The translations under genes and the position numbers were made by a program. The notes under the pieces were generated by a model. The model saw only the letters and a list, made by a program, of their open reading frames with translations. It did not search any database and had not been told where the DNA came from. Shown here in pieces: positions 2,334 through 36,219 of a stretch of 44,179 bases of DNA. The DNA is from a phage: NCBI GenBank assembly GCA_032279465.1, contig GCA_032279465.1_4357.1. One strand, written 5' to 3'. Position 1 is the stretch's first letter. Each line of letters begins with the position of its first letter.

Positions 2334-2364
2334 CTTCTGTCTCTCCTCTTGTTTGTGTAAATGA

Positions 2365-2394
2365 ATAGTAGCCTATTCTATCTTAGTGTGCAAG
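2365..2394 (-). promoter_or_regulatory. Sigma70-like promoter (type 1: TTGCAC-N18-TACTAT) with AATAG-N4-CTATT inverted repeat
   Basis: Minus-strand -35 TTGCAC (2389-2394), -10 TACTAT (2365-2370); inverted repeat 2364-2377; about 30 nt upstream of gene start 2333. Confidence 0.5.
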
Positions 2395-2551
2395 TAAATT
2401 TTATTGGTGTTTGTATTGTTGCATCTCCTGCAATAGTCGCTTCGATTGTTGCGTTTGATGGAAGTGTCGCCTTTTGACGACACTAAGTTAAAGTTGTACG
2501 CTGCCGTGTAGCAGCGTAAGTCACTCGGTAAAATCCCAAACTATTGACCTG

Positions 2552-2739
2552 TTACACCGGCGCCGGTGGTTCAGGTAAGGGCATCCAGTGCGTTATATCA
2601 CCGTGATATAAACTCTTTGCAGGCCCCAGTAGCCATCTGAATTAACACGCATAACCTCACAGCCAACAAAACAATCAGTTACAAGAACGTATTCATAAGG
2701 CTCCGGCATCCGCTCACTACACTTAATCCACTTGCTCAT
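2552..2739 (-). pseudogene. DUF551-like small protein, apparently frameshifted
   Basis: Frame from ATG 2739 gives MSKWIKCSERMPEPYEYVLV... then stops at 2593; the -1 frame continues ...HGDITHWMPLPEPPAPV to 2552, which is the hallmark DUF551 C-terminus recalled from memory. Confidence 0.4.
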
Positions 2740-2897
2740 AAATCGCCTCTCTTCTCAAATGCGCCAGCCATTACATTCGCACCAGCTTTCCACGCCCGCC
2801 ACGCGAGACGCGTCTTAACGTTCAGGTACTCTTTCTTCGAACCCTTATTAACCGGCAGACCCTCGACGATGGCCCACCGTTCGAATGCTTCTCTCAT
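2736..2897 (-). CDS. Hypothetical small protein (53 aa)
   Basis: ATG at 2897 overlaps upstream stop (ATGA); below ORF-track size cutoff. Confidence 0.3.
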   Translation of the reverse strand: MREAFERWAIVEGLPVNKGSKKEYLNVKTRLAWRAWKAGANVMAGAFEKRGDL

Positions 2898-3049
2898 ACC
2901 AGAACCTCGCATTCATCCCGATACACGAACAATAATGACCCTTTGTACTCAATCATAAAACCATAATGGTTGCTGCTGAACGCCAGAAAAACATCACCTA
3001 CCGAGATACCGAAATCTATAAGCCTGCGGTCAGTTATTCGAATTTTCAT
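2894..3049 (-). CDS. Hypothetical small protein (51 aa)
   Basis: ATG at 3049 overlaps upstream stop (TAATG); MKIRITDRRLIDFG... Confidence 0.3.
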   Translation of the reverse strand: MKIRITDRRLIDFGISVGDVFLAFSSNHYGFMIEYKGSLLFVYRDECEVLV

Positions 3050-3252
3050 TAACGGCAACCTCCCTCAGAGTCGTCGGCACGAGCATCATGATTCGATGCC
3101 GTTCGTATAGCCAGTAAGCTATTTAGCATTTGCTGGCTATCCATCGTAATAATTGTAATCCCGTCCGATAAATGCACCTCGTAGCGTTCAGCTACGAAAT
3201 ATATTTCCTCGAAATCATGATGTTTCAGTTCTTCAAATAATTCTTCCATCAC
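3049..3252 (-). CDS. Hypothetical acidic protein
   Basis: 67 aa ORF, coupled to flanking genes. Confidence 0.4.
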   Translation of the reverse strand: MMEELFEELKHHDFEEIYFVAERYEVHLSDGITIITMDSQQMLNSLLAIRTASNHDARADDSEGGCR

Positions 3253-3437
3253 TTCACCCTTTTAAATTTAAAATTGTTGCCGATGAGTTTTAACTCATTA
3301 GCTTCGTAATAAACCGAAGAAGTTAATCCGTCCTGCCTGATATAACGGATGATATAAGACCCTGGGTATACGACAGACTCTTTTCCGACAACACCAAAGC
3401 CATATGCTGTTTTCACCAACTGACCATTCTTAAACAT
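3249..3437 (-). CDS. Hypothetical protein
   Basis: ORF track 3249..3446; probable ATG at 3437 behind GGAGTGAGGG Shine-Dalgarno; first gene behind promoter 3472-3500. Confidence 0.4.
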   Translation of the reverse strand: MFKNGQLVKTAYGFGVVGKESVVYPGSYIIRYIRQDGLTSSVYYEANELKLIGNNFKFKRVK

Positions 3438-3471
3438 AACCCTCACTCCTCTGTCTCGTTTTGATAAGTGA

Positions 3472-3500
3472 ATAGTATCCTATTATGTTGGGGTGTGCAA
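3472..3500 (-). promoter_or_regulatory. Sigma70-like promoter (type 1: TTGCAC-N17-TACTAT) with AATAG-N4-CTATT inverted repeat
   Basis: Minus-strand -35 TTGCAC (3495-3500), 17-nt spacer, -10 TACTAT (3472-3477); inverted repeat 3471-3484. Confidence 0.55.
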
Positions 3501-3559
3501 GAGATTAGTTACGTTGCCGTTGTGATTCTTTCGTTTCTTAAAAGAGTACGCAACGCAGT

Positions 3560-3774
3560 GGGTGGGCGTTAGCCCACCCCAGCGGAGTGAAGTACTCTCT
3601 ATCTTGCTTACGGCAACTATAGAAACTTTTAATTATCAGTGACTTGGATATTTAGGCGGGATTAACAATAGACTTTGACCCTTCCGAAAGCGTCAGCGGA
3701 ACTACACTCAAGTGCCTAATGGCACGCGTTGCGTTCCCTGCCGCTCCGCGGTCGCTTGCGATATCTCACAAGCT
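3560..3774 (-). ncRNA. Structured leader RNA, copy A (putative antitermination/attenuator element)
   Basis: Non-coding; core 3665-3790 is a paralog of 35955-36078; predicted start near 3774 from promoter 3781-3809; 5' hairpin 3754-3773; covarying stem 3698-3702/3733-3737 enclosing hairpin 3712-3725; ends at GC hairpin 3560-3579. Confidence 0.45.
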
Positions 3775-3780
3775 CAGTGA

Positions 3781-3809
3781 AGCTTAGCATATTTTCAAGT
3801 AAAAGTCAA
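3781..3809 (-). promoter_or_regulatory. Promoter of leader RNA copy A (TTGACT-N17-TGcTAAGCT)
   Basis: Minus-strand -35 TTGACT (3804-3809), 17-nt spacer, extended -10 TGcTAAGCT (3781-3789); same architecture as 36069-36097. Confidence 0.5.
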
Positions 3810-3856
3810 TACCAGTAGCATCTTTTGTATTTTAGTAACTTTGCGTGGTGTTTTGG

Positions 3857-3885
3857 TTGCTTTTACATTCACGCTATCCTATACT
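3857..3885 (+). promoter_or_regulatory. Sigma70-like promoter for plus-strand early genes
   Basis: -35 TTGCTT (3857-3862), 17-nt spacer, -10 TATACT (3880-3885), about 30 nt upstream of ATG 3917. Confidence 0.45.
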
Positions 3886-3916
3886 CGTTTTCACCAAACA
3901 AACAGGAGATATAAAA

Positions 3917-4099
3917 ATGCAGCATTACATGACACAGAATGAAGTGGCTGAACGTATCGGGGTGACCCGTCAAACAATTAATAATTGGTTGCGCAGCGGT
4001 AAATTCCCTGATTGCTGTATTAAGGTTATGGGTCGCCGTTTACCAGGAACATTTGACCGTAATAAAGTTGAAGCATGGATTAAGGAGAACGTGAAATGA
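3917..4099 (+). CDS. Small HTH DNA-binding protein (AlpA/excisionase-like)
   Basis: ORF track 3845..4099; ATG 3917 behind AGGAG; helix-turn-helix segment NEVAERIGVTRQTINNWLRSGKFP. Confidence 0.6.
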   Translation: MQHYMTQNEVAERIGVTRQTINNWLRSGKFPDCCIKVMGRRLPGTFDRNKVEAWIKENVK

Positions 4100-4308
4100 T
4101 TGGGCGTATGGGTTGTTACTTTGAAAACTGTAAAGTTAAATACCGGTTTAAGTTTGCGCCGGAAATTACTGACAGCGGATTCTATGCGGAAATATGTAAG
4201 CCTAATCATTTGTTGGAACCGACACGCATTATTAAGATGCCAATCGAGGCTTTAAGTAAGTGTCGTTTCTACGCTTCGGAGCGTGCGTGGATTGCGGGCG
4301 TTAAGTAA
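4096..4308 (+). CDS. Hypothetical protein
   Basis: 70 aa ORF, ATGA overlap with upstream gene. Confidence 0.4.
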   Translation: MIGRMGCYFENCKVKYRFKFAPEITDSGFYAEICKPNHLLEPTRIIKMPIEALSKCRFYASERAWIAGVK

Positions 4309-4376
4309 AAGAAACCCCAACGCCAGAACGTCGGGGCTAAAGTACAAATCATCAAAGTAAGCATAAGGATTATACA

Positions 4377-4505
4377 ATGACAAAGTTAATAGTTCCACAG
4401 CTACGCCGCCAGAAACACGGCGCTGACTTCTTCGCACCGGTAAAGATGAACCGCGCAATGCGCCGTATGCAGGAAGCCTTAGAACGTGCGGAGAAAAAGA
4501 AATGA
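4377..4505 (+). CDS. Hypothetical small basic protein (42 aa)
   Basis: ATG 4377, stop overlaps primase start (ATGA); below ORF-track cutoff. Confidence 0.3.
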   Translation: MTKLIVPQLRRQKHGADFFAPVKMNRAMRRMQEALERAEKKK

Positions 4506-6754
4506 ATATTGTTTTTGCAACGCTGCGCAACACATTCGATAAAAACCCTGTAGCGCGTGAGATGCCTCTCGAGCAGTTTGTGGAGTATGTCTGCGATACA
4601 TCGAAGCGTTTATCCGTGGATCCGTCGTGGTCTAAGGAAGAGTACGACGCTGCCAAGATTAAGCAGAAAGCTATTGCGCCTGTTGGGGGTCGCCGTAAAA
4701 ACGCTATCCTGGAAGACAGTGTGGTTAAGTTCGATTTTGACCATCTCAACCGTACTCAGTACCGCGACCTTGCCCGCAAATTCAAGAACGCACCGTTCTT
4801 CAATATTCTGCATACAACGGCATCGCATCAGCATGTGTGTAAAAACGGTGATTACGCCTTCCGCGTTCTGGTTCCGGCTCGCACGCCGTTTAACTCTAAC
4901 GACGCGTGGATGGTCCAACGGGCTATTTGTGCAGAGTTAGAAATAGATGAAGCCTTGCGTGACCACTGCACGGAAGACGGCAACCGCCTTATCTATCTGC
5001 CACATAGAGAGTCAAAGATAACGGTTACAGAAGGGCGTGTTATCCGTGCCGAGCGGTACATCAAGAAAGCCGAAGAGATGGGGTTGAGTAAACGTGAAGT
5101 TAAGACACTTGCCGCCGATGAGTATGGGCTTAATGCTGATATAGCGCATTTCTGCGAAGCCGAGCTTGGCCTTGACGCTTTATCTTCCGGGCGCGGGTAC
5201 GAAGTCCCATGCCCTAACGAACATCTGCATACAGGCAAAGGCTCCACAAGCATCATGCTTGATGGTAAAGAAGTGCGCTTTGTGTGCCAGCATACAAACA
5301 ACGGCGCTTGCACCGAGCTTAACCGCCGACAGCATTTGGCCCTGCGTATGTGCGGCCTGCCAGACGAGCTTAACGTAGACAAGCAACCTATCAGTATTAA
5401 CAGCATTCGTGCGGCTCTGCCTGATTTACCGGATGAAGAGATTGAAGAACTGCACCGCACAGAGAACGAGGAGCCTGTAACTTGCACGCTGGAAGACCTT
5501 GAAGAAGAGGACGAGTTACCAGAACCGGTAAAGGCTGATTTCGTCGTTGAGGGGTACATGCCGTCGGATTGTATCTGGGATATTGTCGGGGAATCCGGCA
5601 CGTACAAATCATTCTATACGCTGGGGATGATGTACCTGAGCGCCGCCGGGTACCGGTTTGCGGGGGCTGACACCCAACGTTGCCACCATTTCTATATTGA
5701 CGGCGAGGGTGGTGCGACTACACGAACACGTATTGATGCACTCGCGGCTAAATATGGCGAGGAAGGTAAAGATTATGTACATGTCATCGATATGGGCGAA
5801 ATACTCGCTACGCATGGTGATAAAAAAATTCCAGCTCTAATCCGCAGGATGCGCGAAACCGCAGGGGATGAACCTATTGGCATGGTTGCCTTCGACACCC
5901 TTAACCAGACGCTGGCCCTGACGATTGATAAGTTCGACGAGAACAGTTCATCAACGGCAATCGGTATGGGTAAAGTTATCGCCATCCTGAAAGAAGTGCG
6001 CGATGCAACTAAAGCCGCTGTCGGTGTCGTTCACCATACTCCGAAGGGCGGAAAGAAAGCCCGCGGCAGTGGAGCATTGTATGCGGGTGTCGACGTGGAA
6101 CTTACAATCGAACGCGCTACCGGCCGTCAGATAAACGTATACCACTCTAAATTTAAGCACGGTCCGCAACAGAAGACGGTTGGCATGGTACTGGAGTCTG
6201 TACAGTTCCGTGAAGCACCGCCGCCGAAAGAGTACCGCGCGGTTGAGTTCCTCGGTAGCACAGAGGAATACGGCACAATAGTAAACCTCGACCTGCCTGA
6301 GCCGCACAAGGCGCTTGTATTGATGCCGTGGGGCTTCGAGCCATTCAAGACCGACGAGGAGAAAGAGAGGGAAGAAGGGTTAACTAACGAAGGTAAACAA
6401 AATGTACGTAAAACCATAGAGAACGCCGTCAACAGTTCCGAGGCCACGATACTCGCGGCGTTTGAACTGGCGGAGGGGACCTACAACGGCAACGAAGGCA
6501 TCACAGTCGCCGCGGCGAATAAGCTCGCACAGTCAGACCCCAACGCAAAGGCGTTTAACTCCAAAGAAGCCATAGAACGCGGGAAGATTAAGAAAATGGT
6601 TGAGGCTGGGTATCTTGTCCCGGGTACTGACGAAAACAATCAGATAATCCCAGGCCGTTACAGACTGAACACCATGATAACAGATAACAAGATTCCGAAG
6701 ACAATATACGAGCCGAATGAAATGCTGACAGTGACCGAGGAGGATTTGGAATGA
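4502..6754 (+). CDS. DNA primase/helicase (N-terminal primase-like and zinc-binding region, C-terminal RecA-like ATPase)
   Basis: 750 aa; Walker A GESGTYKS, ...VVHHTPKGGKKARGSGALYAGVDVELTIER typical of RepA/DnaB-like phage helicases; Cys/His cluster CPNEHLH...CQHTNNGAC. Confidence 0.65.
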   Translation: MNIVFATLRNTFDKNPVAREMPLEQFVEYVCDTSKRLSVDPSWSKEEYDAAKIKQKAIAPVGGRRKNAILEDSVVKFDFDHLNRTQYRDLARKFKNAPFFNILHTTASHQHVCKNGDYAFRVLVPARTPFNSNDAWMVQRAICAELEIDEALRDHCTEDGNRLIYLPHRESKITVTEGRVIRAERYIKKAEEMGLSKREVKTLAADEYGLNADIAHFCEAELGLDALSSGRGYEVPCPNEHLHTGKGSTSIMLDGKEVRFVCQHTNNGACTELNRRQHLALRMCGLPDELNVDKQPISINSIRAALPDLPDEEIEELHRTENEEPVTCTLEDLEEEDELPEPVKADFVVEGYMPSDCIWDIVGESGTYKSFYTLGMMYLSAAGYRFAGADTQRCHHFYIDGEGGATTRTRIDALAAKYGEEGKDYVHVIDMGEILATHGDKKIPALIRRMRETAGDEPIGMVAFDTLNQTLALTIDKFDENSSSTAIGMGKVIAILKEVRDATKAAVGVVHHTPKGGKKARGSGALYAGVDVELTIERATGRQINVYHSKFKHGPQQKTVGMVLESVQFREAPPPKEYRAVEFLGSTEEYGTIVNLDLPEPHKALVLMPWGFEPFKTDEEKEREEGLTNEGKQNVRKTIENAVNSSEATILAAFELAEGTYNGNEGITVAAANKLAQSDPNAKAFNSKEAIERGKIKKMVEAGYLVPGTDENNQIIPGRYRLNTMITDNKIPKTIYEPNEMLTVTEEDLE

Positions 6755-7065
6755 ATATTTACGATTTTATAGATAACCCGTTTAAAGCAGTGAAGGCAGG
6801 ATACCGCCCGTCATACCTGACATGTGTTTCCGCTGTAAGCAACAACTGGTGGACTTTTTGTGTGTATGCAGCGGGGATTTTTGCGGAGTTTAAAGACATT
6901 TTAGACATGACGCTGGCAGAGATTATAAAGTGCCTTTTCAAATTAATTATATCGATAACTATTGTTATAAGTTTTCCTGTAAGTGCGTGGTTTCTCGCCT
7001 GGATTCAGTACCTGAACGTGCAACACACTATTAAGAATTTGGAAGAACTCGATAAGTTGCTATAA
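6751..7065 (+). CDS. Hypothetical membrane protein (AT-rich, moron-like)
   Basis: 104 aa; hydrophobic helices; 3' half markedly AT-rich versus flanks; ATGA overlap with primase-helicase stop. Confidence 0.45.
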   Translation: MNIYDFIDNPFKAVKAGYRPSYLTCVSAVSNNWWTFCVYAAGIFAEFKDILDMTLAEIIKCLFKLIISITIVISFPVSAWFLAWIQYLNVQHTIKNLEELDKLL

Positions 7066-7089
7066 AAAGAAAGGGGCTTTAAGCCCCTT
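7061..7089 (-). terminator. Rho-independent terminator of XRE regulator gene
   Basis: Hairpin AAGGGGCTTT/AAGCCCCTT overlapping the stop codon, followed on minus strand by T-rich tract TCTTTTTTATA. Confidence 0.55.
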
Positions 7090-7294
7090 CACCTAACGCC
7101 AGCCACTTGGCGTCTACTTCCAGAACTTCCGCCAGTTTGAACAGCGTTGCCGGGCGGACGTCCTGAGTTACTCCAAGTGCCAGCTGGTTAATCGCGCCCT
7201 GGGAAACGCCGGTCAGGGCCGCCAAACGGCGCTGGGAGATGCCGAGTTCTTTACGGCGTTGTTCTACACGGGTGCCTAGTTCAGATGGTTGCAT
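7079..7294 (-). CDS. XRE-family (Cro/CI-like) HTH transcriptional regulator
   Basis: 71 aa; LGISQRRLAALTGVSQGAINQL helix-turn-helix; AAGGAG Shine-Dalgarno; lone minus-strand gene diverging from promoters carrying two inverted-repeat motifs. Confidence 0.7.
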   Translation of the reverse strand: MQPSELGTRVEQRRKELGISQRRLAALTGVSQGAINQLALGVTQDVRPATLFKLAEVLEVDAKWLALGEGA

Positions 7295-7314
7295 GTCAGT
7301 TACTCCTTAGTCAG

Positions 7315-7387
7315 TTGATATGTGAATAGTACCATATTAATTATTTTAGAAAAGCCCATTGACATGTGAATAGTTCGCTATTATAGT
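7315..7387 (+). promoter_or_regulatory. Tandem sigma70-like promoters (type 2) with two AATAG-N4-(C/A)TATT inverted repeats
   Basis: P1 TTGATA (7315-7320)-N17-TAATTA; P2 TTGACA (7359-7364)-N17-TATAGT (7382-7387); inverted repeats 7325-7338 and 7369-7382; divergent from XRE gene. Confidence 0.55.
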
Positions 7388-7415
7388 TAGCCCATACCAA
7401 ACGAGAGGGGCAGAT

Positions 7416-7643
7416 ATGAACACAATCACTGGGGCCATAGCTAAAGGTTTTCGAGCAATTTTCGGCGCTCCGCAAGAAGTGTGCACAAAACATAAATTTG
7501 TACTTTCTTGCGTAGTAGGGGATGAGTTTGATGGGTTCGATAAACTTGTTGTCTGTGACCATTGCGGGCAAGAAGCTATTCAACACTCAAACGGTAAATT
7601 TGAACTAATAGACGATAGCCTTACTGAAGGCGACGGTGAGTAA
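7416..7643 (+). CDS. Hypothetical protein with CxxC motif
   Basis: 75 aa; GAGAGGGG Shine-Dalgarno; VCDHCGQE. Confidence 0.4.
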   Translation: MNTITGAIAKGFRAIFGAPQEVCTKHKFVLSCVVGDEFDGFDKLVVCDHCGQEAIQHSNGKFELIDDSLTEGDGE

Positions 7644-7667
7644 CTTACACAAACAGGAGAGAAACAA

Positions 7668-8159: not shown

Positions 8160-8202
8160 CTATCAGGCGGCCTTCGGGCCGCTTTAACGGAGGGGCGGAA
8201 AT

Positions 8203-9713: not shown

Positions 9714-9913
9714 TTCAAGTAAATGAAATGCCCACAGATAAAGATTTTGTGATGATATGGCGCTGGGGCGGTTATATCCATTCGGAATCGTTTACGTTCC
9801 TGAACGGCACGATGGTGCGATACAACCATGTGGGGGATGAATTCGAACCCGTTGATATGAATGATTTCGAGAACATAGTCCGTATTGCGAAATTTTATTT
9901 GACACCTGAATAG
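9710..9913 (+). CDS. Hypothetical protein
   Basis: 67 aa ORF coupled to exonuclease. Confidence 0.35.
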   Translation: MIQVNEMPTDKDFVMIWRWGGYIHSESFTFLNGTMVRYNHVGDEFEPVDMNDFENIVRIAKFYLTPE

Positions 9914-9927
9914 TTAGCTATTATAGT
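9899..9927 (+). promoter_or_regulatory. Sigma70-like promoter (type 2: TTGACA-N17-TATAGT) with inverted repeat
   Basis: -35 TTGACA 9899-9904, -10 TATAGT 9922-9927, inverted repeat 9909-9922; followed by 5' UTR hairpin CCGGG/CCCGG near 9940-9955. Confidence 0.55.
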
Positions 9928-9995
9928 TCTAATCACTGGCCGGGCAGCTTCCCGGAGTAAACTTTGAAATATAAACTGAAAAGCGAGAAATCACG

Positions 9996-10622: not shown

Positions 10623-10642
10623 TATCTGAATCAATTTAACTA

Positions 10643-10667
10643 AGGCCCTTCATTGGGCCTTTTTACT
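10643..10667 (+). terminator. Rho-independent terminator
   Basis: Stem AGGCCC/GGGCCT with loop TTCATT followed by TTTTACT. Confidence 0.55.
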
Positions 10668-13715: not shown

Positions 13716-13992
13716 AGAGGGCCGCGTACAGAAATACGCAAAAGAGCGATTCGAGGCCCTCGGGGGCCTCGTTCGTAAGTTGTCGTACGAAAATAGAGTG
13801 GGCGCTCCCGACCTGCTGGTAATTCTCCCCGGCGGCATCATCTGGTTCGTCGAGGTTAAGAAAGACGAAAACACGAAGCCAGACCCGCACCAGCTACGCG
13901 AGCACGAGCGGATGCGTAAACGCGGTGCAGATGTTTTTGTCGTCGGGTCGTTCAAACAGGTTGACGACCTAATAGCGAACTATTATAGTTAG
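13705..13992 (+). CDS. VRR-NUC domain nuclease
   Basis: 95 aa; PD-(D/E)xK signature GAPDLLVILPGGIIWFVEVKK. Confidence 0.7.
   Translation: MATKEGRVQKYAKERFEALGGLVRKLSYENRVGAPDLLVILPGGIIWFVEVKKDENTKPDPHQLREHERMRKRGADVFVVGSFKQVDDLIANYYS
13961..13989 (+). promoter_or_regulatory. Sigma70-like promoter (type 2: TTGACG-N17-TATAGT) with inverted repeat
   Basis: -35 13961-13966, -10 13984-13989, inverted repeat 13971-13984; lies inside 3' end of VRR-NUC gene. Confidence 0.5.
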
Positions 13993-16283: not shown

Positions 16284-16314
16284 AAAAGGCCCCGTTTGGG
16301 GCCTTAGTTTATTT
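16284..16314. terminator. Bidirectional Rho-independent terminator between convergent modules
   Basis: Stem AAGGCCCC/GGGGCCTT with loop GTTT, A-tract upstream and T-tract downstream; between Toprim gene and tailspike gene. Confidence 0.65.
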
Positions 16315-18649
16315 AACTGTTTGTCAGGGTAGCCACTAATGTCTCAAGCGCTATAATCCTTTTCTCTAACTGAGCTGCTTTACGTCGCTGTAACGCAGCC
16401 TCTAATATCAATACCTCATCATAACGAATACCATACCGCTCCCCTGCCGCCGTAGCTTTTGTTAATACTCCCCCAGATTCCTCATCAATAATTTCCGGAG
16501 ACGCTTCCCACTTATCGTAGCACAGGAAACCGTACTTAGTCGCGTCCAACCCGTGCCGGGTAAACGCCTCAATTGCTCGTTGGGCTACTACTCCAAAGTG
16601 CCACCTAGCTGCATCCTCCCCCTTCTCTGCAACCCTATCCAGGTACTTATATTGAACTAAATTAACTTCAGCCCAAGCGTCTAACATAGCGTCAGTTAAT
16701 TCCAGGGGTAGTGTCTTGGTTCTCTCGTCAGACGTAACCGTAAACGCTGTTTGAGTGAATCCGCCGGACAAAGCGCGACTTGCCGACCCGATAGCGACGG
16801 TGTTTGCACTGGATGGTGTAATAGCCGTCGGGGCTATTTGAATATACGCCGATGCGTCAGAGGCTAAGCGTAAAGCACCCTTAACCAGAGAAATAGTTCG
16901 AGAAGTACCATCAGATGTGAGTAATTTTATCTGAGAGGTCGTACCTCCACCAATAGCCAAAGATGTAGCCCCATCGGAAATTAGTCTGAATTTATCAGCT
17001 GTACTAAAAGGCAATGCAGAAGTATTTATATACTTAGTGAACCACTCAAACCTACCGGACATGGACCCTATGTATTGTCCTATAGCGGGGGCGTGTACCA
17101 CGTTACTGGTGGGAGTACCATCAATGCTAGAGACTCCGGTTATAGTAGATAGTGAACTAAGAAGACTGTTCTTGGGTCCAGGGTGCTTTACTTCCACAAA
17201 GTTACGGGTAGTCCCTGTCTCTAGTGTAACAACCCCGGAAGCACTATACATAGGGAAAACCGATGCGTAGTTATTACTAGCTCCGTCTAAAAACCTAATA
17301 GAAGTCGCGGTTTGCGTTTGCCCTAAACTATTAGTTCCGCTGCACCCAACCATTAGAATATTATCAGCGGCATTATAGTTGCCTTGTAATGTAACGCCGT
17401 GTGCTTGCGTGGCCTCGGAGGAGGAGTAATCAGCTACAACATTTGTCACCAGATTACCTGAACCCTTGCCGGCGACCACAGCGGCATACTTAGCGTTATT
17501 AGCAACAACATTACTGATAATATTACTGCTAGGGGCATTGGTCGTCTTGGTGCCATTATAAACAACGTGCTGACAGCTTTGCCCAATGACGCCACTAACA
17601 ACATTACATTTAGCATCTGTTTTCAACTCAACCGCCCCGAATTGGGGGTAGTTTCGGGCGATAACATCGTTGATTATAGTATTACTTGCGGACTCAAACA
17701 GCACGCACCCCGCTGTTTTATTTGTAGCATACCCGGAGTAGTCGCCCCGTATGCCGCTTACAATGTATCCAGACGGACCCCCATCATTAGGGTATGCTAT
17801 TAAACTAAATCCAGTTCCCTTTGCATTTTTAAAATCAATACCTTTAATAGTAACGTCCTGCCCACCGGCGAAGGAAACCTGCTGACCCTGTGTGAGGTCC
17901 GTTGCCTTATTTCCTACAATACTCAGGGTGCTAAGTAGCCCTCCTGCAGGTTTATCAAAGATTAAGTGGTTTCCAGAATCGTTTGATTGTTTTAAAACCC
18001 CACCCCCTGTTCCAAATAGAGAGCATGTCGGGTGGGAGAGTAGCGACGTACTATACTCCCCTTGCGGTACAAGCACCCCGTTACTAGCTGTAAGCGCTCG
18101 GTTAAGGGCGTTTGTGTAATCAGGGTCAGTACCTAAATAGAAGTCCAGAACGGAAACTACTTCTCTATTTTTATCGTGTTGCGTCCTGCCGACAGCGTCG
18201 GTAAATGGTTGTCGGACGCCGACCATGGCATCACCTAATGTCGCATTGTCTGTGCTGGATAAATCATTCCGTAAATCAGGGTCTGTCTGCGGCTTCCAGT
18301 TAGCGTTACCGACTGGATTAAAACTCGCGGGAACAACAACCGGCAACGTACCCGCATATGAGTGCCACGTCTTGCTTACGGGGTCATACACCACTTTATC
18401 GCGGTCATTAACTGTTAACGTACCGCCGGTGGAAAAGTCCCACGATACGGGAGAAAAACCGGCATCACGCAACACAGCAGGAAGCGTCTTCTGGGTCTGC
18501 CCGGTAACAGGGTTGGTCGCGTAATCAATATCGGCGCCACCAGCAACCCCGCCGGATTTACCGGTGATAACCTCGGCTTCAAAAATTTGGTGTTTCTTGG
18601 CGGTTTGTAAATCCGCCAGGCTTAAAACGTCACCGCATCCGCTTGACAT
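16313..18649 (-). CDS. Tailspike/tail fibre with C-terminal intramolecular chaperone (peptidase S74-like)
   Basis: 778 aa; C-terminal SDERTKTLPLELTDAMLDAWAEVNLVQYKY...WHFGVVAQRAIEAF as in endosialidase-type autoproteolytic chaperone domains; long Gly/Ser/Thr/Asn-rich central region suggestive of beta-helix. Confidence 0.7.
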   Translation of the reverse strand: MSSGCGDVLSLADLQTAKKHQIFEAEVITGKSGGVAGGADIDYATNPVTGQTQKTLPAVLRDAGFSPVSWDFSTGGTLTVNDRDKVVYDPVSKTWHSYAGTLPVVVPASFNPVGNANWKPQTDPDLRNDLSSTDNATLGDAMVGVRQPFTDAVGRTQHDKNREVVSVLDFYLGTDPDYTNALNRALTASNGVLVPQGEYSTSLLSHPTCSLFGTGGGVLKQSNDSGNHLIFDKPAGGLLSTLSIVGNKATDLTQGQQVSFAGGQDVTIKGIDFKNAKGTGFSLIAYPNDGGPSGYIVSGIRGDYSGYATNKTAGCVLFESASNTIINDVIARNYPQFGAVELKTDAKCNVVSGVIGQSCQHVVYNGTKTTNAPSSNIISNVVANNAKYAAVVAGKGSGNLVTNVVADYSSSEATQAHGVTLQGNYNAADNILMVGCSGTNSLGQTQTATSIRFLDGASNNYASVFPMYSASGVVTLETGTTRNFVEVKHPGPKNSLLSSLSTITGVSSIDGTPTSNVVHAPAIGQYIGSMSGRFEWFTKYINTSALPFSTADKFRLISDGATSLAIGGGTTSQIKLLTSDGTSRTISLVKGALRLASDASAYIQIAPTAITPSSANTVAIGSASRALSGGFTQTAFTVTSDERTKTLPLELTDAMLDAWAEVNLVQYKYLDRVAEKGEDAARWHFGVVAQRAIEAFTRHGLDATKYGFLCYDKWEASPEIIDEESGGVLTKATAAGERYGIRYDEVLILEAALQRRKAAQLEKRIIALETLVATLTNS

Positions 18650-25707: not shown

Positions 25708-25814
25708 TCTTTAATCCTTTGGTTAAGAGGTTACGGGTTAAGGTTAATGCGCCAGACGGGAACCACCCGCTTTTCGTGTGCGACACTAGGCGCAAAATTA
25801 TTCTATCACATTAC

Positions 25815-25843
25815 TTGCACACCCCAATATAATAGTGTACTAT
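25815..25843 (+). promoter_or_regulatory. Sigma70-like promoter (type 1: TTGCAC-N17-TACTAT) of plus-strand accessory island
   Basis: -35 25815-25820, -10 25838-25843, inverted repeat 25831-25844; about 40 nt upstream of ATG 25885. Confidence 0.55.
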
Positions 25844-25884
25844 TCACTTACACCGACGATGTTATCCCAAACAGGAGCTACACC

Positions 25885-28283: not shown

Positions 28284-28287
28284 GAAA

Positions 28288-28315
28288 AAGGCCCCGAAAG
28301 GGGCCTTAGTTTTAT
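28288..28315. terminator. Bidirectional Rho-independent terminator
   Basis: Stem AAGGCCCC/GGGGCCTT with loop GAAA, then TAGTTTTAT; between dNMP kinase and convergent major tail gene. Confidence 0.65.
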
Positions 28316-31259: not shown

Positions 31260-31261
31260 TT

Positions 31262-31774
31262 TTAACCCCGGTACACATTAAATGAGAAGCCGTTGTTAAG
31301 ACCACCACACAGTAACGGGCGTAAGGCGTCGTCAGCGGCGGTAATCGCGGTTGTGGCTCCGCTGTTGCCGTTGTTGAAGTAGGTAACTGTTACCGCACCC
31401 TCTACACGCTCGGTCTGCACGGAACGTCCATCGGAGTTAGCCCGAACATCAGTGCCCGCCCCATACGTAACAGCGGCGATTACCTGCGCCCGGATTAACT
31501 GCGGTGGGATAACATTATCAGCTACGGTGAAGCCGTTTAGTGTTGTTCCCGTACGTGGGTACGCCAGGGACTGCTCGGCGGATACGCGGTGGCCACACAT
31601 CTGAGGTTCTGCAAGCCCGACATAAGTAGCACCGTTGCGCAAGGCCACCTCTGCGGCGGTATCGTCTTCCGGTAGCTCAAGGCCATAATTAGCCGCTAAC
31701 GCGCGGGCGTCAGCCAGTGAGATGTACGAATCGGCCCCTTCTATAATTTGACCTGTTTCTACGGTTAAGGACAC
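31262..31774 (-). CDS. Head-tail adaptor-like protein (putative)
   Basis: 170 aa, position between capsid and tail genes. Confidence 0.4.
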   Translation of the reverse strand: MSLTVETGQIIEGADSYISLADARALAANYGLELPEDDTAAEVALRNGATYVGLAEPQMCGHRVSAEQSLAYPRTGTTLNGFTVADNVIPPQLIRAQVIAAVTYGAGTDVRANSDGRSVQTERVEGAVTVTYFNNGNSGATTAITAADDALRPLLCGGLNNGFSFNVYRG

Positions 31775-31777
31775 TTT

Positions 31778-32431
31778 TCACCCCTTCTTACAGTTATCAA
31801 AGTGCCACCTCTTTAGAAGAGATAGCGCCCCTTCGGTTCCGCAATGTGGGCATACCCCGCGCGGGCGTTTCATTCCAGTAAGTTTATCTGAAATTTTCTT
31901 GACAGTCTCGCCCTTTAACGTATGGCCCTTCTTAAAACTTCCGGAGTTAGGTTTTCTATTAACCTTGCCAACGATTCTATTTGGGTCCGCGAACTGGCAT
32001 TTCTTGCAGCAATATTTACGCGCTCGTGATTTAAAACGGTAGGGGATCGGCTGGTCGCATGTTACACATCGTTGTGGGTTTGCCATGTAATGCTCTATTC
32101 TGGCTTTTCTACTTGCAGTTTCCCAGGTAGCAATTCCTTTATTCCACGCCTTTTGCCCTAGATGTGCTTGTCTGAGATTTTCTATACGTTTATCAGAAAA
32201 TTTAACACCAGTATTCAACCTGGACATCTCTATAGCCCAAGCCTCTTTCGCCAACTTAAAGGAATGTGAGTTAACTTTTGACCTCTGATTGTTTTTAGGG
32301 TTAATACACATAACCCTCCAGGCGAAAGCTAGTTCTTTAGTCCCGTGTATCTTATAGAGAAGCCAATGCGCAATAAAATGCTGTCTAGCGCTCAAAGATA
32401 CAATATTGTCAAAAGTATCTCCACCACCCAT
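31778..32431 (-). CDS. HNH homing endonuclease with NUMOD3-like repeats and C-terminal zinc finger; canonical start lies inside the HNH motif
   Basis: 217 aa from ATG 32431; upstream in-frame codons read NAKINPFSGYTEKHHIVPKC before MGGGDTFDNIVSLSARQHFIAHW with no ATG/GTG/TTG back to stop at 32492; GHTLKGETVKKISDKLTG NUMOD3-like; CPHCG; AT-rich. Confidence 0.6.
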   Translation of the reverse strand: MGGGDTFDNIVSLSARQHFIAHWLLYKIHGTKELAFAWRVMCINPKNNQRSKVNSHSFKLAKEAWAIEMSRLNTGVKFSDKRIENLRQAHLGQKAWNKGIATWETASRKARIEHYMANPQRCVTCDQPIPYRFKSRARKYCCKKCQFADPNRIVGKVNRKPNSGSFKKGHTLKGETVKKISDKLTGMKRPRGVCPHCGTEGALSLLKRWHFDNCKKG

Positions 32432-32582
32432 GCATTTCGGGACTATGTGATGTTTTTCGGTATACCCACTAAACGGATTGATTTTTGCGTTCTATATTAA
32501 CTGTTCATAGATTTTGGCGTAGTTCATGATTCACCCTTTTCAATGGAGGATGGATTCATTATGCCAACTACGCCAGATATTA

Positions 32583-32762
32583 CTATTCCTCAGACTTACG
32601 GCGACGACGCTTAGTGCCGCCGCCGTTGTTGTGCGCTTCTTCGTTGTCCGGTTGTGTTGCAACCAGTTCTTCCGCTTCTACCGCACCGCGAACAGGCATC
32701 ACCTGACCGTTAACAACGTCAACGTGTGTGTACTTTTCGCGGATTACATAATTATCAGCCAT
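32583..32762 (-). CDS. Hypothetical small protein (59 aa)
   Basis: ATG 32762 overlaps stop of Ig-like gene; basic C-terminus GGGTKRRRRKSEE; below ORF-track cutoff. Confidence 0.3.
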   Translation of the reverse strand: MADNYVIREKYTHVDVVNGQVMPVRGAVEAEELVATQPDNEEAHNNGGGTKRRRRKSEE

Positions 32763-33141
32763 GACCTTTCCTTATTACGGCCCCTTCGGTGCCGTTGTAT
32801 TGCCTCACAGTTGCTACAGTGCTGCTGGAGATAATATTACCATATACATCGTGAACAACCACTTTATACGTACCGGAGTCGGCGGTAGTGGTCGACGCTT
32901 TAACATAGGTGGCTGCGGTAGCCCCCGCGATGGCGTTGTTGTTCTTGTACCACTGATAGGAATATGGCGCCAGACCGCCGGTTACGGTTACGGTCAGTGT
33001 CATAGTTTCACCTGCGGTTACTACGGTAGTGGCCGCCGGTGCGGGTGAGAAAGACGCAGGAGAAATAGTCCCCGTGTCAATCTTAGCGCCTACGGTATCC
33101 CCGGAGACGCCGGTAATGCGACGTTTGATTACATCAACCAT
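32755..33141 (-). CDS. Ig-like domain protein (possible capsid decoration)
   Basis: 128 aa; TVTVTGGLAPYSYQWYKNNNAIAGAT resembles Ig-like domains of phage decoration proteins. Confidence 0.5.
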   Translation of the reverse strand: MVDVIKRRITGVSGDTVGAKIDTGTISPASFSPAPAATTVVTAGETMTLTVTVTGGLAPYSYQWYKNNNAIAGATAATYVKASTTTADSGTYKVVVHDVYGNIISSSTVATVRQYNGTEGAVIRKGHG

Positions 33142-33153
33142 TTTTAAGCTCCT

Positions 33154-33453
33154 TTAGCTTACAGTTCCTGCGTTTTTAAGCGCAGTCAACAGATTTGCTA
33201 CGGTAGTGCGCAGCGCGGTAACATCGGTTCGGGGTTTGTTGTACTCCGCTACAAGGGCGTCGAACTCTTCCTTAGTCGGTGCCGCGGCGGACTGCACCCT
33301 GGCGGCGGCGGTAATGGCCGCAGGTGCAGCCACAGTAGCTGACTTTTTAACCCCACCAACTACGCTGGTAGTAGCAGGCGTGACTGGGATATCAAAGTCA
33401 CCGAAGTCGACATTCTGAAGGCTGCGCGGCAAGCCTTTTCCGGTCTTAGCCAT
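33154..33453 (-). CDS. Hypothetical head protein
   Basis: 99 aa directly downstream of major capsid gene. Confidence 0.4.
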   Translation of the reverse strand: MAKTGKGLPRSLQNVDFGDFDIPVTPATTSVVGGVKKSATVAAPAAITAAARVQSAAAPTKEEFDALVAEYNKPRTDVTALRTTVANLLTALKNAGTVS

Positions 33454-33512
33454 AATTTACCTCTTAGTAAATGAAAAGAGGGACCGAAGTCCCTCTCGAT
33501 TATAGCTTAACC

Positions 33513-34562
33513 TTAAGCACCGACGCCAGTTACCAGGAAGGCAATCGGCACATGCTTACGTTCAACAACACGGTTCCAGTTGGAGGCGTTCGCCAGGTCC
33601 TGCCAGGAAGCGGAGCGTGCGACAGTCTCTGTGCCGTTACCGGTGATTACTGCGCTGGTGAAGCTGTAGCCCAGTGGGTGCAGCAACCAGGTCTTACGGG
33701 TCCACAGGGTTTCGACGCCACCACCGTTGCCGCGAGACGCTTCGCGTTCGTATTCCAGCGGGTTGGACGGAGAACCTTCACCGTAACCGATAGCGCCGTT
33801 GCCGAAGATGACGGAGATGAACTTGCGGCTCGGGCCAGTGTCAACTACGGTCATGCTGTCGTCAACAATCACGCGGTAGCCCTGGTAGGTGGCGAACATG
33901 GTGTTGTTGTCCGCGTCACGGATGAAGTCGATAAGCTGCTGCTTACGTGCCTGCGCATAAACGAAGCTATGCATCGCGATAGCCCCCAGCACTTCACCGC
34001 CGTTGGCCATCAGAGCATCGCCCATAGTCTGGGTAGCGTCGATGAACGCGCCAGCATCGAAGCCCAGAGTATCAGACACGTCGATAACCATGTCGTTCTT
34101 CTCGTGGTAAGCATCGGTAGCAGCTACGTTGTCGTTGTACAGACCGAGCGCGGTAGCAATCAGACGGCGTTGTGCCTGGCGCTGCCAGAAGTTATCCAGA
34201 CGGGACGCTACGGATTGCAGCGGGTTCTGGCTGGTCAGTTCGACAGTCAAATCCGCCTGACCGAAACCTTCGTTCAGGTATGCAACGCGGGCCATCATCT
34301 CACCGGTCTGCACGTTACGCGGGGTGGCGATGTCCTGGTATACATCGTTCGAGTAGTTAGGCTCGATAGAGGTATCAATCGCTTTCCAGAACGGAATATT
34401 AGCGACGTTGGACGGGCCGCGGGCAATCTCGGCAGCGTACGGGGTCGGGGTCAGAATACCAGACTGGAAGAACGCGGTTTTTTCTACCGGGTCCTCGGTC
34501 ATATAAGACGCCAGGACCGGGATGTTGCCGGTTACGATATCGCCGATAGTGGTAATTGCCAT
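33513..34562 (-). CDS. Major capsid protein
   Basis: 349 aa, preceded by scaffold and followed by decoration-like genes. Confidence 0.7.
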   Translation of the reverse strand: MAITTIGDIVTGNIPVLASYMTEDPVEKTAFFQSGILTPTPYAAEIARGPSNVANIPFWKAIDTSIEPNYSNDVYQDIATPRNVQTGEMMARVAYLNEGFGQADLTVELTSQNPLQSVASRLDNFWQRQAQRRLIATALGLYNDNVAATDAYHEKNDMVIDVSDTLGFDAGAFIDATQTMGDALMANGGEVLGAIAMHSFVYAQARKQQLIDFIRDADNNTMFATYQGYRVIVDDSMTVVDTGPSRKFISVIFGNGAIGYGEGSPSNPLEYEREASRGNGGGVETLWTRKTWLLHPLGYSFTSAVITGNGTETVARSASWQDLANASNWNRVVERKHVPIAFLVTGVGA

Positions 34563-34564
34563 TA

Positions 34565-35266
34565 TTATTTCCTCAGGGCTTTAAGTTGCCGTTCAAATTC
34601 GGCAGGGTTCGATTTATACAGGGCTAAACGCTCTGCTTCACTCATGTCTTTAAACGCTGGTGCGGCCCCGCCGCCTTTGCTACCGGAAGCCCCGCCGCCG
34701 GAAGCTGCATTTGCTTTGATCAAATGCGAAAACGCCTTGTGTTCGCGCAGGTATTTGCGGAACTGTTCCGGGTCAGTCGTGATTACGTTACCGTCTGCGC
34801 CAACAAACTTAGTAACCACATCATCGCCTTCGAACTCAGTCTTAACGAACGGCGCAAGAATGTCCACTGCTTCTGGGGTAATAAAGTCACCCGCGAAAGA
34901 GCCTAGCACCGCTTTACGTTCGCTGCCGAGGATACGCTCTGCCATTCTGGAGATGCGACCGTCTTTCTCGGCTAACACCGGGTCATACTGGCTACGAATC
35001 GTCTTTTCGAACTCATCCATCTTACCAGCGGCTTTTAACGCCTCCTGGTGCGCGCGCTGCCGTTCTTCTTCGGCCTCTTTTGCTTTGCGAGCGGCTTCTT
35101 TCTTCTCCGCCAACAATGCTTCCTGATTAGCCTTAAGCCCGGCAACTTCTTTCTCAATCAGCGCCTGAACTTCTTCAGCGGTGAACATTTTCGGCGCGTC
35201 ACCGCCACCAGCTTTATCTTCTGCCCCAGCTTCTTCCTGGAACGGATAACGTAAAAAACGATTCAT
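34565..35266 (-). CDS. Scaffolding protein
   Basis: ORF track 34565..35320, probable ATG 35266; Ala/Glu/Lys-rich coiled coil immediately upstream of capsid gene. Confidence 0.6.
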   Translation of the reverse strand: MNRFLRYPFQEEAGAEDKAGGGDAPKMFTAEEVQALIEKEVAGLKANQEALLAEKKEAARKAKEAEEERQRAHQEALKAAGKMDEFEKTIRSQYDPVLAEKDGRISRMAERILGSERKAVLGSFAGDFITPEAVDILAPFVKTEFEGDDVVTKFVGADGNVITTDPEQFRKYLREHKAFSHLIKANAASGGGASGSKGGGAAPAFKDMSEAERLALYKSNPAEFERQLKALRK

Positions 35267-35348
35267 AGTCAGTATGTCCCCTGGACGTTGGAATCCGGGC
35301 CTCCCGGATTTACATGTCAAGAATAAATTATTCCAACATGCAAGGCAA

Positions 35349-35612
35349 CTATTCCAGAATATTCCTCACGTAATCCTGCAACATGAACACTTTCAGCCTC
35401 AGTTGCCGTACACATTCGGCGTTCTGAACGTCGATAGCCAAATCCTCATCGGCGTCGCTACTTGGCAGCGCCAGCTTGCACGGCGGCTGCATCATCGTCG
35501 TATCCGGGGATGGAATTGGCGTTGGCGACGGCGCGGGACTTGAACTGCACGCGCTCAGGGTCAAAAGTGCACACGCTGCGACCAGGCGTTCTAATGTACT
35601 TAACGACTTCAC
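35349..35612 (-). CDS. o-spanin (Rz1-like outer-membrane lipoprotein)
   Basis: Signal peptide with lipobox LSAC then Pro-rich SSSPAPSPTPIPSPD; starts inside Rz in another frame and extends past its stop. Confidence 0.55.
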   Translation of the reverse strand: MKSLSTLERLVAACALLTLSACSSSPAPSPTPIPSPDTTMMQPPCKLALPSSDADEDLAIDVQNAECVRQLRLKVFMLQDYVRNILE

Positions 35613-35844
35613 GGGTAATCACCTCTGATTTCGTCTTGCCTTCGTTGTCAGCGGCGGCTGCCTTCGATTCGTCCTGCTGCTGCCGTTGTGTTTTCTTAGC
35701 TAACTCAGCCTGTGCTTTTTGCTGTTGCTGCGAAACGAGATTAGCGCGGCCTTCGTGCCAGCCGCTGCGGTACTGATAAATGCCGTGTGTGTAAGCCTGG
35801 ATGATGAAACATGCTCCTGCTACGACGGTTGCTTTAAGATTCAT
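35458..35844 (-). CDS. i-spanin (Rz-like)
   Basis: 128 aa; N-terminal TM helix, Gln/Ala-rich coiled coil; overlapping Rz1-like ORF. Confidence 0.6.
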   Translation of the reverse strand: MNLKATVVAGACFIIQAYTHGIYQYRSGWHEGRANLVSQQQQKAQAELAKKTQRQQQDESKAAAADNEGKTKSEVITREVVKYIRTPGRSVCTFDPERVQFKSRAVANANSIPGYDDDAAAVQAGAAK

Positions 35845-35861
35845 GTTTCTCCTTTCTCGAT

Positions 35862-36062
35862 AAGTAAAGCCCCGCCTTAAAGCGGGGCGCTAGTCCTTAT
35901 CATTTAAACATAGAAACGGCGTAATCTAAGTAAACCTGTTACTTTTTACACAAGCAATAGAGTATGGCCCTTCCGAACGCGTCAGCGTAACTACACTCAG
36001 GACTTACGTCCCGCTCCGTTACCTGCCCGCGCCGCGGTCGCTTGTTCATACTTCACAAGCTC
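35862..36062 (-). ncRNA. Structured leader RNA, copy B (putative antitermination/attenuator element) ending in intrinsic terminator
   Basis: Paralog of 3665-3790; predicted start near 36062; 5' hairpin 36040-36060; covarying stem 35987-35991/36018-36022 enclosing hairpin 36000-36011; terminator stem 35869-35875/35882-35888 plus U-tract, about 25 nt upstream of Rz start. Confidence 0.45.
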
Positions 36063-36068
36063 AGGTGG

Positions 36069-36097
36069 AGCTTAGCACATTTTTAGTGAAAAGTCAA
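36069..36097 (-). promoter_or_regulatory. Promoter of leader RNA copy B (TTGACT-N17-TGcTAAGCT)
   Basis: Minus-strand -35 36092-36097, 17-nt spacer, extended -10 36069-36077; identical elements to copy A. Confidence 0.5.
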
Positions 36098-36111
36098 CTA
36101 TTCGAATAGTT
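36096..36111. promoter_or_regulatory. Perfect 16-bp palindrome AACTATTCGAATAGTT overlapping -35 of leader-RNA promoter
   Basis: Same GAATAG/CTATTC half-sites as the promoter inverted repeat, here with zero spacer; adjacent inverted repeat TATTCCA...TGGAATA. Confidence 0.4.
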
Positions 36112-36163
36112 TATTCCAACATTTACAATTCGGTGGAATAACTGGAATACGTAAATAAATAGT

Positions 36164-36192
36164 TTGCACACCCCAATATAATAGGGTACTAT
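36164..36192 (+). promoter_or_regulatory. Sigma70-like promoter (type 1: TTGCAC-N17-TACTAT) of 67-aa moron
   Basis: -35 36164-36169, -10 36187-36192, inverted repeat 36180-36193; AGGAGG Shine-Dalgarno then ATG 36220. Confidence 0.55.
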
Positions 36193-36219
36193 TCAGTTAA
36201 CTTAAACAGGAGGTGAAAA

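Follow-up and report, generated by a model that had tools for sequence, protein, structure and literature searches.

Genome and gene layout

The contig GCA_032279465.1_4357.1 of GenBank assembly GCA_032279465.1, a stretch of 44,179 nucleotides that was analysed whole and is called the window here, carries a short inverted repeat, AATAG-N4-CTATT (the dyad), in promoters spread along its length, together with a gene for a small helix-turn-helix (HTH) protein of the XRE family. The relation between the two is the subject of this report. The window matches Escherichia phage SHAK7858 at about 95% identity over the replication module and many K1G-like phages at 90-93%; by these identities it is a Kagunavirus (Guernseyvirinae) genome, and this genus has been described as lytic (PMC9825357; PMC7203180). 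Joining the window ends places the terminator hairpin (1-33) ahead of the promoter at 44129-44157, an arrangement that phage Bas75 has contiguously; the window thus represents a whole genome in circularly permuted form. Gene blocks were assigned by comparison with the annotated records of Bas75 and Ent1. No integrase was found in the annotated relative Bas75 or among the 25 Pfam families listed of the 47 found for the window, and no RNA polymerase either among the Pfam matches listed for the 68 open reading frames (ORFs) or in the Bas75 annotation; the only ORFs of more than 760 amino acids encode tail proteins.

Dyad-bearing promoters precede the small early genes, the replication genes, an exonuclease block that has been inserted, one small gene on its own and an operon with lysis genes at its end (Table 1). 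The XRE gene ends at a hairpin terminator (7070-7090) and is flanked by two dyads 44 bp apart, of which the perfect one covers the divergent promoter and the imperfect one the promoter of the gene itself, in agreement with a first-pass annotation of this DNA, made from the letters and a list of ORFs, according to which the gene diverges from a region with two copies of the repeat.

Table 1. Promoters associated with the dyad, and the gene of the proposed regulator
Feature	Position	Strand	Details
Class 2 promoter, TTGCAC-N17-TACTAT	2364..2393	-	-35 2388-2393, -10 2365-2370, dyad 2364-2377; target from 2333 leftward, ending in holin and endolysin genes
Shared dyad, 3471-3484	3461..3500	both	two overlapping, facing, mutually exclusive promoters
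Class 2 promoter at the shared dyad		-	-35 3495-3500, -10 3472-3477; into small genes from 3446 leftward
TTGATA-N17-TATGTT at the shared dyad	3461-3489	+	toward the 3845 operon (HTH_17 protein, helicase-primase)
XRE-family (HTH_3) gene	7079..7294	-	71 aa, 434-Cro-like, proposed repressor; monocistronic, own promoter
Imperfect dyad, AATATGGTACTATT	7325..7338	-	over the extended -10 promoter of the XRE gene; candidate autoregulatory operator
Class 1 promoter, TTGACA-N17-TATAGT	7359..7387	+	dyad 7369-7382; reads away from the XRE gene and drives the exonuclease block from 7416 on
Class 1 promoter, TTGACA-N17-TATAGT	9899..9927	+	dyad 9909-9922; drives single-stranded-DNA-binding protein and DNA polymerase genes
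Class 1 promoter, TTGACG-N17-TATAGT	13961..13989	+	dyad 13971-13984; drives 14023 onward (helicase block)
Class 2 promoter, TTGCAC-N17-TACTAT	25815..25844	+	-10 25838-25843, dyad 25831-25844; drives 25885 onward (DNA-repair exonuclease block)
Late-type promoter, TTGACT-N17-TGcTAAGCT	36069..36102	-	one-mismatch dyad AATAGTTGACTTTT, 36089-36102, over the -35
Class 2 promoter, TTGCAC-N17-TACTAT	36164..36193	+	dyad 36180-36193; drives the 67-aa gene 36220-36423
Early promoter, TTGACT-N17-TATATT	44129..44162	-	one-mismatch dyad ACTAGTTGACTATT, 44149-44162, over the -35 (centre about -33.5)

A family of dyads in sigma70-type promoters

An exhaustive scan of both strands recovered AATAG-N4-CTATT in seven perfect copies, at 2364, 3471, 7369, 9909, 13971, 25831 and 36180, which are the seven that the first-pass annotation had listed, with no further perfect copy. 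In 100 dinucleotide shuffles the expectation was 0.01 and none reached seven, which bears out the earlier statement that such a palindrome should occur far less than once in 44 kb by chance. With up to one mismatch allowed there were 10 sites against 1.19 expected, the additions being the imperfect copy already noted at 7325 (AATAGTACCATATT) and two that had been missed, at 36089 and 44149; the original list was complete for perfect copies and incomplete for near ones. Apart from GC-rich terminator hairpins, this is the sole enriched palindrome in the window. The seven perfect copies and the 7325 site are all intergenic, 20-60 nt upstream of a start codon and inside a -35/-10 pair of sigma70 type (at 7325 the -35 is absent), and the start codons downstream of the perfect copies have a Shine-Dalgarno sequence. 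The scan placed every perfect copy in a promoter, so that the site family is confined to promoters, as the first-pass annotation had claimed. The dyad is a real and statistically overwhelming site family.

Two promoter classes with N17 spacers had been described as carrying the repeat, and both are real. Class 1 (TTGACA or TTGACG-N17-TATAGT, at the 7369, 9909 and 13971 dyads, all on the plus strand) comprises the three top sigma70 matches of the left 16.5 kb, at 11/12, 11/12 and 10/12 consensus positions; its dyad begins 4 nt past the -35 and extends just far enough to take in the first T of the -10, so that its centre lies at about -18.5. Class 2 (TTGCAC-N17-TACTAT, at 2364 and 3471 on the minus strand and at 25831 and 36180 on the plus strand) matches the consensus at only 7/12 positions and fails a simple promoter scan; the dyad begins 10 nt past the -35, its right half is the -10, and its centre lies at about -12.5. 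The label 'near-consensus', which had been applied to all of these promoters, is too generous for class 2.

The remaining sites differ in detail. The XRE gene is served by an extended -10, TGgTACTAT (TG at 7333-7334, TACTAT at 7326-7331), and the G-to-T 'mismatch' of the 7325 dyad is the very base that creates this TG; an imperfect site in the regulator's own promoter is likewise found in L038, Ent1 and L066. The 44149 site, a variant dyad of the form ACTAG TTGA CTATT, belongs to the first promoter past the genome-end terminator; in Jerseyvirus, where the site is conserved, the other half is the imperfect one, and at the orthologous promoters of phiEap-2 (3722) and L066 (9514) the dyad stands 7 nt after the -35 instead. 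The membership of the 36089 site in the operator family is doubtful; the second copy of its late-type promoter, at 3781-3809, is without a dyad. At 3461-3500, where two promoters face each other across one dyad, a single bound protein would shut both.

Two other ways of reading these promoters were rejected. A symmetric, bidirectional -10 as the source of the palindrome would put the hexamers CCCTAT, GCCTAT and TCCTAT on the bottom strand, none of which has the A that is essential at position 2. An alternative class 2 promoter, ATCACA-N17-TATAAT at 25805, with its TATAAT to the left of the dyad, does not agree with the paralogous copies, which are conserved only from TTGCAC onward.

The dyad as a module separate from the promoter

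Dyad centres in the window lie at about -12.5, -18.5 or -33.5, and relatives add a register at about -15.5, in which the gap after the -35 is 7 nt and the -10 is TATTAT or TAATAT. Over the window and its relatives together, the dyad follows the -35 at a distance of 4, 5, 7 or 10 nt or else covers it, and at some orthologous promoters the dyad has shifted, for example from over the -35 to 7 nt past it. The right half, CTATT, builds the -10 in three different frames and the left half falls in the spacer, where it is not read by sigma70, the spacers at dyad promoters being 16-18 bp long and mostly 17. Because of this variable gap, the spacer position of the left half and the shifted register of orthologous promoters, sequence comparison indicates that the dyad is a module separate from the promoter and independent of RNA polymerase contacts.

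These observations bear directly on the published view of the repeat. In the Kagunaviruses fBC-Eco01 and Golestan, the same seven-copy repeat was recovered with PHIRE as the consensus tgAATAGTa-ccTATTat-T and named a phage promoter, being treated either as the promoter of a phage-encoded RNA polymerase or simply as a promoter, with no mention of dyad symmetry or of a link to the XRE gene (PMC9825357; PMC7203180); our search of the literature found no paper that noted either. An intrinsic promoter element acting with no separate repressor, be it a phage-polymerase promoter, a MotA-like box or a by-product of promoter duplication, would agree with the overlap of the right half-site with the -10 and, in the case of duplication, with the roughly 36 bp, spacer included, that class 2 copies have in common. 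However, a polymerase or activator contact of fixed geometry does not account for a dyad whose placement with respect to the -35 and -10 takes four registers or more, each copy within a sigma70-type pair, or for a left half in the spacer, and duplication alone would not be expected to yield symmetry, a variable N4 and conservation across genera with diverged flanks. The same dyad also stands beside XRE genes in unrelated GC-rich elements, as described below. 'Phage RNA polymerase promoter' is a mislabel of the repeat, because no such polymerase gene was seen in the Pfam matches listed for the ORFs or in the annotated relative, and we judge an intrinsic promoter element of any of these kinds to be very unlikely.

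Conservation and drift of the half-site in relatives

Across 37 Kagunavirus loci the ten half-site columns showed a mean variability of 0-0.006, against 0.02-0.04 for the N4, and the flanks varied as well. The dyad was also the only enriched palindrome in Bas75, Ent1 and SP-101. The Jerseyviruses Ent1 and SP-101 have 4-5 perfect copies at orthologous promoters, extended to TAATAG-N4-CTATTA, and the promoter orthologous to that at 9899..9927 keeps its dyad in Ent1, SP-101, phiEap-2 and TS6. Further away the half-site changes: phiEap-2 has a looser AATA[G/C/T] dyad (7 versus 0.29 expected), ATTA[G/C/T] predominates in the Cornellvirus SP-031 and its relatives TS6 and GRNsp27 (9 versus 1.37 expected for Cornellvirus), and the L066 clade has AATAC-N4-GTATT (4 versus 0.29 expected), with AATAC at 6 of 8 half-sites. 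Position 2 of the half-site was T in 11/16 half-sites of SP-031 and in 0/16 of the window (Fisher p = 7e-5). Judged by these alignments, the dyad is conserved across the Guernseyvirinae in its 5-N4-5 geometry and promoter positions, with a half-site that reads AATAG, ATTAG or AATAC according to the clade.

Jerseyvirus and Cornellvirus have Salmonella as a common host and nevertheless differ in their half-sites, which argues for a binding partner encoded by the phage. A host transcription factor whose site is exploited by the phage would be in keeping with the fact that all hosts are Enterobacteriaceae, and the TrpR operator of E. coli, which we take to be ACTAG-N4-CTAGT, has the same 5-N4-5 geometry; one half of the 44149 site, ACTAGTTGACTATT, is ACTAG, a resemblance that we treat only as a lead. 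But the half-site differs between Jerseyvirus and the Cornellvirus-like phages on that one host and differs again in L066, and the same type of dyad occurs in contigs of 60-70% GC from other hosts, so that a host factor seems extremely improbable. The pattern of drift is that of an operator with a co-evolving, phage-encoded partner, and neither a polymerase contact nor a host-factor site fits it.

The XRE protein

The product of 7079-7294 matches Pfam HTH_3 over residues 11-65 with 49.6 bits (gathering cut-off 23; E 3.9e-13), and in a phmmer search against solved structures its closest relatives were 434 Cro and the 434 repressor (E about 5e-6). A single-sequence AlphaFold2 model (pLDDT 84) has five helices, at residues 5-17, 21-28, 32-39, 48-57 and 62-66, and Foldseek aligned it with 2cro at TM scores of 0.80/0.87 and with 3cro at 0.78/0.84, with 38-40% identity; it also superposes on P22 c2, SinR, HipB and the controller (C) proteins of restriction-modification (R-M) systems, C.BclI and C.AhdI being among the top structural matches. 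By its sequence and its modelled fold, the protein belongs to the XRE/Cro family.

The closest known counterpart is the 434 system. Like 434 Cro, the XRE protein is a small five-helix HTH protein, and its 71 residues equal the length of that protein; the 434 operators are 14 bp long, with conserved outer bases and an uncontacted centre, and the dyad shares with the 434 OR and OL operators its 14 bp, its conserved outer bases and variable centre, and its overlap with sigma70 promoters. As with the Cro proteins of 434, P22 and lambda, the regulator's own promoter contains a weaker site, suggestive of autoregulation, and the proposed role is the damping of early transcription in lytic growth. The differences are equally plain. 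No cI-type partner with a C-terminal domain was found, there being a single XRE gene of 71 aa and, divergent from it, a gene at 7416-7643 that has no Pfam match; nor were three adjacent operators or a second OL-like array found, the other sites being single and dispersed over the window. As neither a cI partner nor tripartite OR1-3 and OL1-3 operators were found, nor an integrase or other lysogeny module in the Pfam families listed or in the Bas75 annotation, the XRE system is not a lambdoid cI-cro immunity switch; unlike the 434 system, it has single operators at no fewer than eight promoters across 44 kb, and its half-site is AATAG as compared with ACAA in 434.

Which protein may bind the dyad

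Among the Pfam matches listed for the ORFs there were two HTH proteins, the XRE protein and an HTH_17 protein at 3845-4099 on the plus strand, a 56-aa excisionase- or MerR-like protein that heads the operator-linked rightward operon. The XRE protein was found in every dyad-bearing clade and was the only HTH protein detectable in all of them. Both sites that flank the XRE gene in L066 carry the AATAC variant of that clade, so that the flanking sites have changed along with the half-site there.

Homologues of the XRE protein at roughly 40-50% identity in otherwise unrelated, GC-rich contigs gave independent support to the link. In L081 (70% GC), the only AWTAG-N4-CTAWT of 18 kb, a perfect AATAGACATCTATT, lies between divergent cI/cro-like genes (0/200 shuffles). 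In L069 (60% GC), three dyads lie within 720 bp of the XRE homologue (0/200 shuffles), and at a TTGACA-N17-TAATAT promoter there one dyad is placed over the -35 and another 7 nt after it. In L067, one dyad lies 55 bp upstream of the homologue (5/200 shuffles). The XRE homologue of L039 adjoins a different repeat, that of L040 is without a dyad, and those of L068, L072 and L090 have no such dyad. Erwinia phage 59 was considered as a distant relative and set aside: it is a lambdoid temperate phage in which the N-terminal domain of CI gave the match, and it is uninformative on covariation. The first-pass annotation had named the XRE protein as the best candidate for the binder, and this choice is strengthened by its likeness to 434 Cro, its standing as the only HTH protein detectable in every dyad clade, the change of both flanking sites in L066 and the dyads that adjoin its homologues in three unrelated contigs, which essentially never arise in shuffled sequence.

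The dyad might instead be the operator of another phage protein, either HTH_17 or a small protein with no recognisable DNA-binding domain. HTH_17 is 80-84% identical between Kagunavirus and Jerseyvirus, as against 46-48% for the XRE protein, and 80-100% identical across more than 440 records of the two genera, which suits their identical core dyad better, and it is the first gene of an operator-linked operon. Yet hmmsearch with --max found no HTH_17 homologue in the other Guernseyvirinae clades, represented by SP-031 and phiEap-2 (best E > 1), and these phages keep dyads that are enriched at orthologous promoters, for which reason HTH_17 was rejected as the common binder. Relatives of HTH_17 typically bind direct repeats as monomers and not 14-bp palindromes, just two HTH proteins were listed in the first place, and the dyad adjoins XRE homologues in L067, L069 and L081, the contigs in which that link was examined. 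Another phage protein as the binder is therefore improbable.

Several observations nonetheless weigh against the XRE protein as the partner of the dyad and have to be set beside the rest. Kagunavirus (SQGAINQ) and Jerseyvirus (SQSLITH) differ at 4/7 positions of the predicted recognition helix and yet have one and the same core half-site, their dyads differing only in a flanking base, and no residue-to-base recognition rule was found that fits all clades. The class 2 right half-site doubles as the -10 hexamer, so that its conservation is partly owed to the promoter. Kagunavirus class 2 promoters also have a common spacer block, ACCCCAAYAT, which an operator model does not explain; as phiEap-2 does not conserve the block, it probably reflects common descent. 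The binder could conceivably be a small DNA-binding protein that Pfam fails to recognise. Finally, a time course of the Kagunavirus K1B4, with sampling that covers several infection cycles, classes some genes downstream of dyad promoters as late (PMC12645636).

Proposed mechanism of repression

Weighing all of this, we regard AATAG-N4-CTATT as the likely operator of the phage's own 434-Cro-like XRE protein, which would repress at least eight promoters by occlusion and would also regulate itself. Two HTH monomers would bind the 14-bp site, one at each 5-bp half-site. With the site over the spacer and -10 (about -12.5 and -18.5) or over the -35 (about -33.5), the bound XRE protein would exclude RNA polymerase. 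Made early, it would turn down early and middle promoters, namely those of small early genes, three promoters of the replication module, and those of the exonuclease block, the single small gene and the lysis-operon-proximal position, and through the weaker 7325 site it would limit its own synthesis. Late transcription into the structural and lysis genes would run from the promoters at 36069-36097 and 3781-3809, a class without the dyad as a feature. The role would be that of Cro in lytic growth, spread over the genome as single operators.

The first-pass annotation had already proposed an operator for a dimeric phage regulator, and the parts of that reading open to sequence comparison were borne out. 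The comparisons show the site family and its place in promoters, its conservation and drift by clade, and the kind of protein and how it is distributed; binding, dimerisation, repression as opposed to activation, and timing are what we infer from this arrangement. Occlusion appears to be the only mechanism that fits all sites, because the dyads cover either the spacer and -10 or the -35, keep no constant helical phase and accompany normal spacers of 16-18 bp. RNA-seq of K1B4 assigned only four genes to the early set, one of them an HTH gene (PMC12645636). Judging from gene order only, this gene, _008, would correspond to the XRE gene, and its early expression is consistent with early synthesis of the XRE protein.

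It is also conceivable that the XRE protein binds the dyad without being a pure repressor, either activating the weak class 2 promoters and repressing class 1 or working as a dual switch in the manner of the C proteins. Class 2 promoters are indeed weak, with 7/12 consensus positions and a poor -35, C.BclI and C.AhdI are among the closest structural matches, and C proteins of R-M systems both activate and repress. But a protein bound to the class 2 dyad, centred on the -10, should block open-complex formation. Activators of class I and class II are placed at about -41.5 or further upstream, and MerR-type activation depends on spacers of 19-20 bp, whereas the dyads here lie downstream of that point and the spacers are shorter; the dyad centres, moreover, differ in steps of 3 bp, so that no constant helical face is presented. 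We consider such an activating or dual role of the XRE protein unlikely.

Two other systems help to place a repressor of this kind. The C proteins C.BclI and C.AhdI are similarly small XRE proteins with palindromic boxes in their own promoter that time expression after entry into a cell. They differ in that they use paired boxes, act at just one or two promoters, those of their own operon, and both activate and repress, while here there are many single sites and only repression is plausible. The logic of one operator in many promoters is closest to that of KorA (with TrbA/KorB). KorA of the IncP plasmid RP4 is reported to be a small dimeric repressor with one palindromic operator in about seven promoters, overlapping the -10, and to coordinate genes for replication, transfer and maintenance (PMC2665229, PMC4889941). 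Unlike the XRE protein, KorA belongs to a different protein family, resides on a plasmid and cooperates with KorB; nothing in the window points to a co-repressor.

Late-operon leader and other sequence elements

Apart from the dyad, the window contains a duplicated module on the minus strand, at 35955-36097 and 3666-3809, with 79% identity over 147 nt. Each copy joins a leader of about 110 nt to a promoter of the extended -10 type, TTGACT-N17-TGcTAAGCT. Copy 1 stands at the head of an operon of spanin, scaffold and capsid genes; copy 2, found in about 20 of the 37 Kagunavirus loci with 72-100% identity, precedes the operon of small and lysis genes. In four clades the leaders share an invariant CGGAAGGG box and an outer CCG...CGG stem, with central hairpins that are fully compensatory (GGAC/GTCC, GTGCC/GGCAC, ACGTC/GACGT and GGGCGC/GCGCCC). 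RNAalifold performed poorly on MAFFT alignments of the leader because the variable hairpins were misaligned, and an Rfam scan of the window, leader included, gave no match. The leader may be an undescribed cis-regulatory RNA of late operons.

An inverted repeat, TTATTCC-N17-GGAATAA, at 36111-36141 has its centre about 64 nt before the start point of the late promoter, and a compact GAATAA-N-TTATTC stands before the scaffold gene at 35317-35334; motifs of this type recur 3-4 times near late genes of phiEap-2 and SP-031. They bear no relation to the AATAG dyad and are candidate sites of a late-gene regulator. The window has just one more family of repeated palindromes, near-identical bidirectional terminator hairpins, AAGGCCCC-N4-GGGGCCTT, at 16286-16305, 28288-28307 and 38757-38776, and also at 36432-36445, which separate convergent gene blocks.

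Two genes deserve mention in their own right. The Pfam scan of the proteome found a Peptidase_S74 (endosialidase chaperone) domain in one protein of the window, the scan not naming the ORF; we take this to be the 778-aa tailspike at 16313-18649 on the minus strand, which would fit a phage specific for the K1 capsule. The 75-aa gene at 7416-7643 on the plus strand, directly downstream of the 7369 promoter and without a Pfam domain, has 86-87% DNA identity to a gene of T7-like Kayfunavirus podophages, annotated elsewhere as '13.88 kDa late protein', and looks like the result of exchange between unrelated coliphages.

Implications for lytic phages of the Guernseyvirinae

Kagunaviruses and Jerseyviruses are widely isolated for therapy and biocontrol, and their gene regulation is essentially undescribed. 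The kind of switch proposed here is familiar and its general principle is textbook knowledge, so that the result is useful rather than surprising; what the analysis adds is the probable reading of the repeat as the operator set of this phage's XRE protein, with control over most early and middle promoters. That reading yields a testable map of the early and middle regulon and predicts that the XRE protein supplied in trans blocks infection and that operator mutants escape. It would add a clear example of a Cro-type module retained in a phage lineage without lysogeny, and for synthetic biology it would offer compact pairs of a 14-bp operator and a 71-aa repressor with natural specificity variants.

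A broader proposal, plausible but put forward here only tentatively, is that the early-to-late transition throughout the Guernseyvirinae is run by one Cro-sized repressor acting through single operators, set in no fewer than four registers into the -10 or -35 of almost all early and middle promoters, and that protein and operator have co-diverged into at least three specificities (AATAG, ATTAG and AATAC). If this is true, these phages hold a natural set of orthogonal mini-repressors, and the XRE protein expressed from a plasmid would give genus-specific 'immunity' against phages that never lysogenise.

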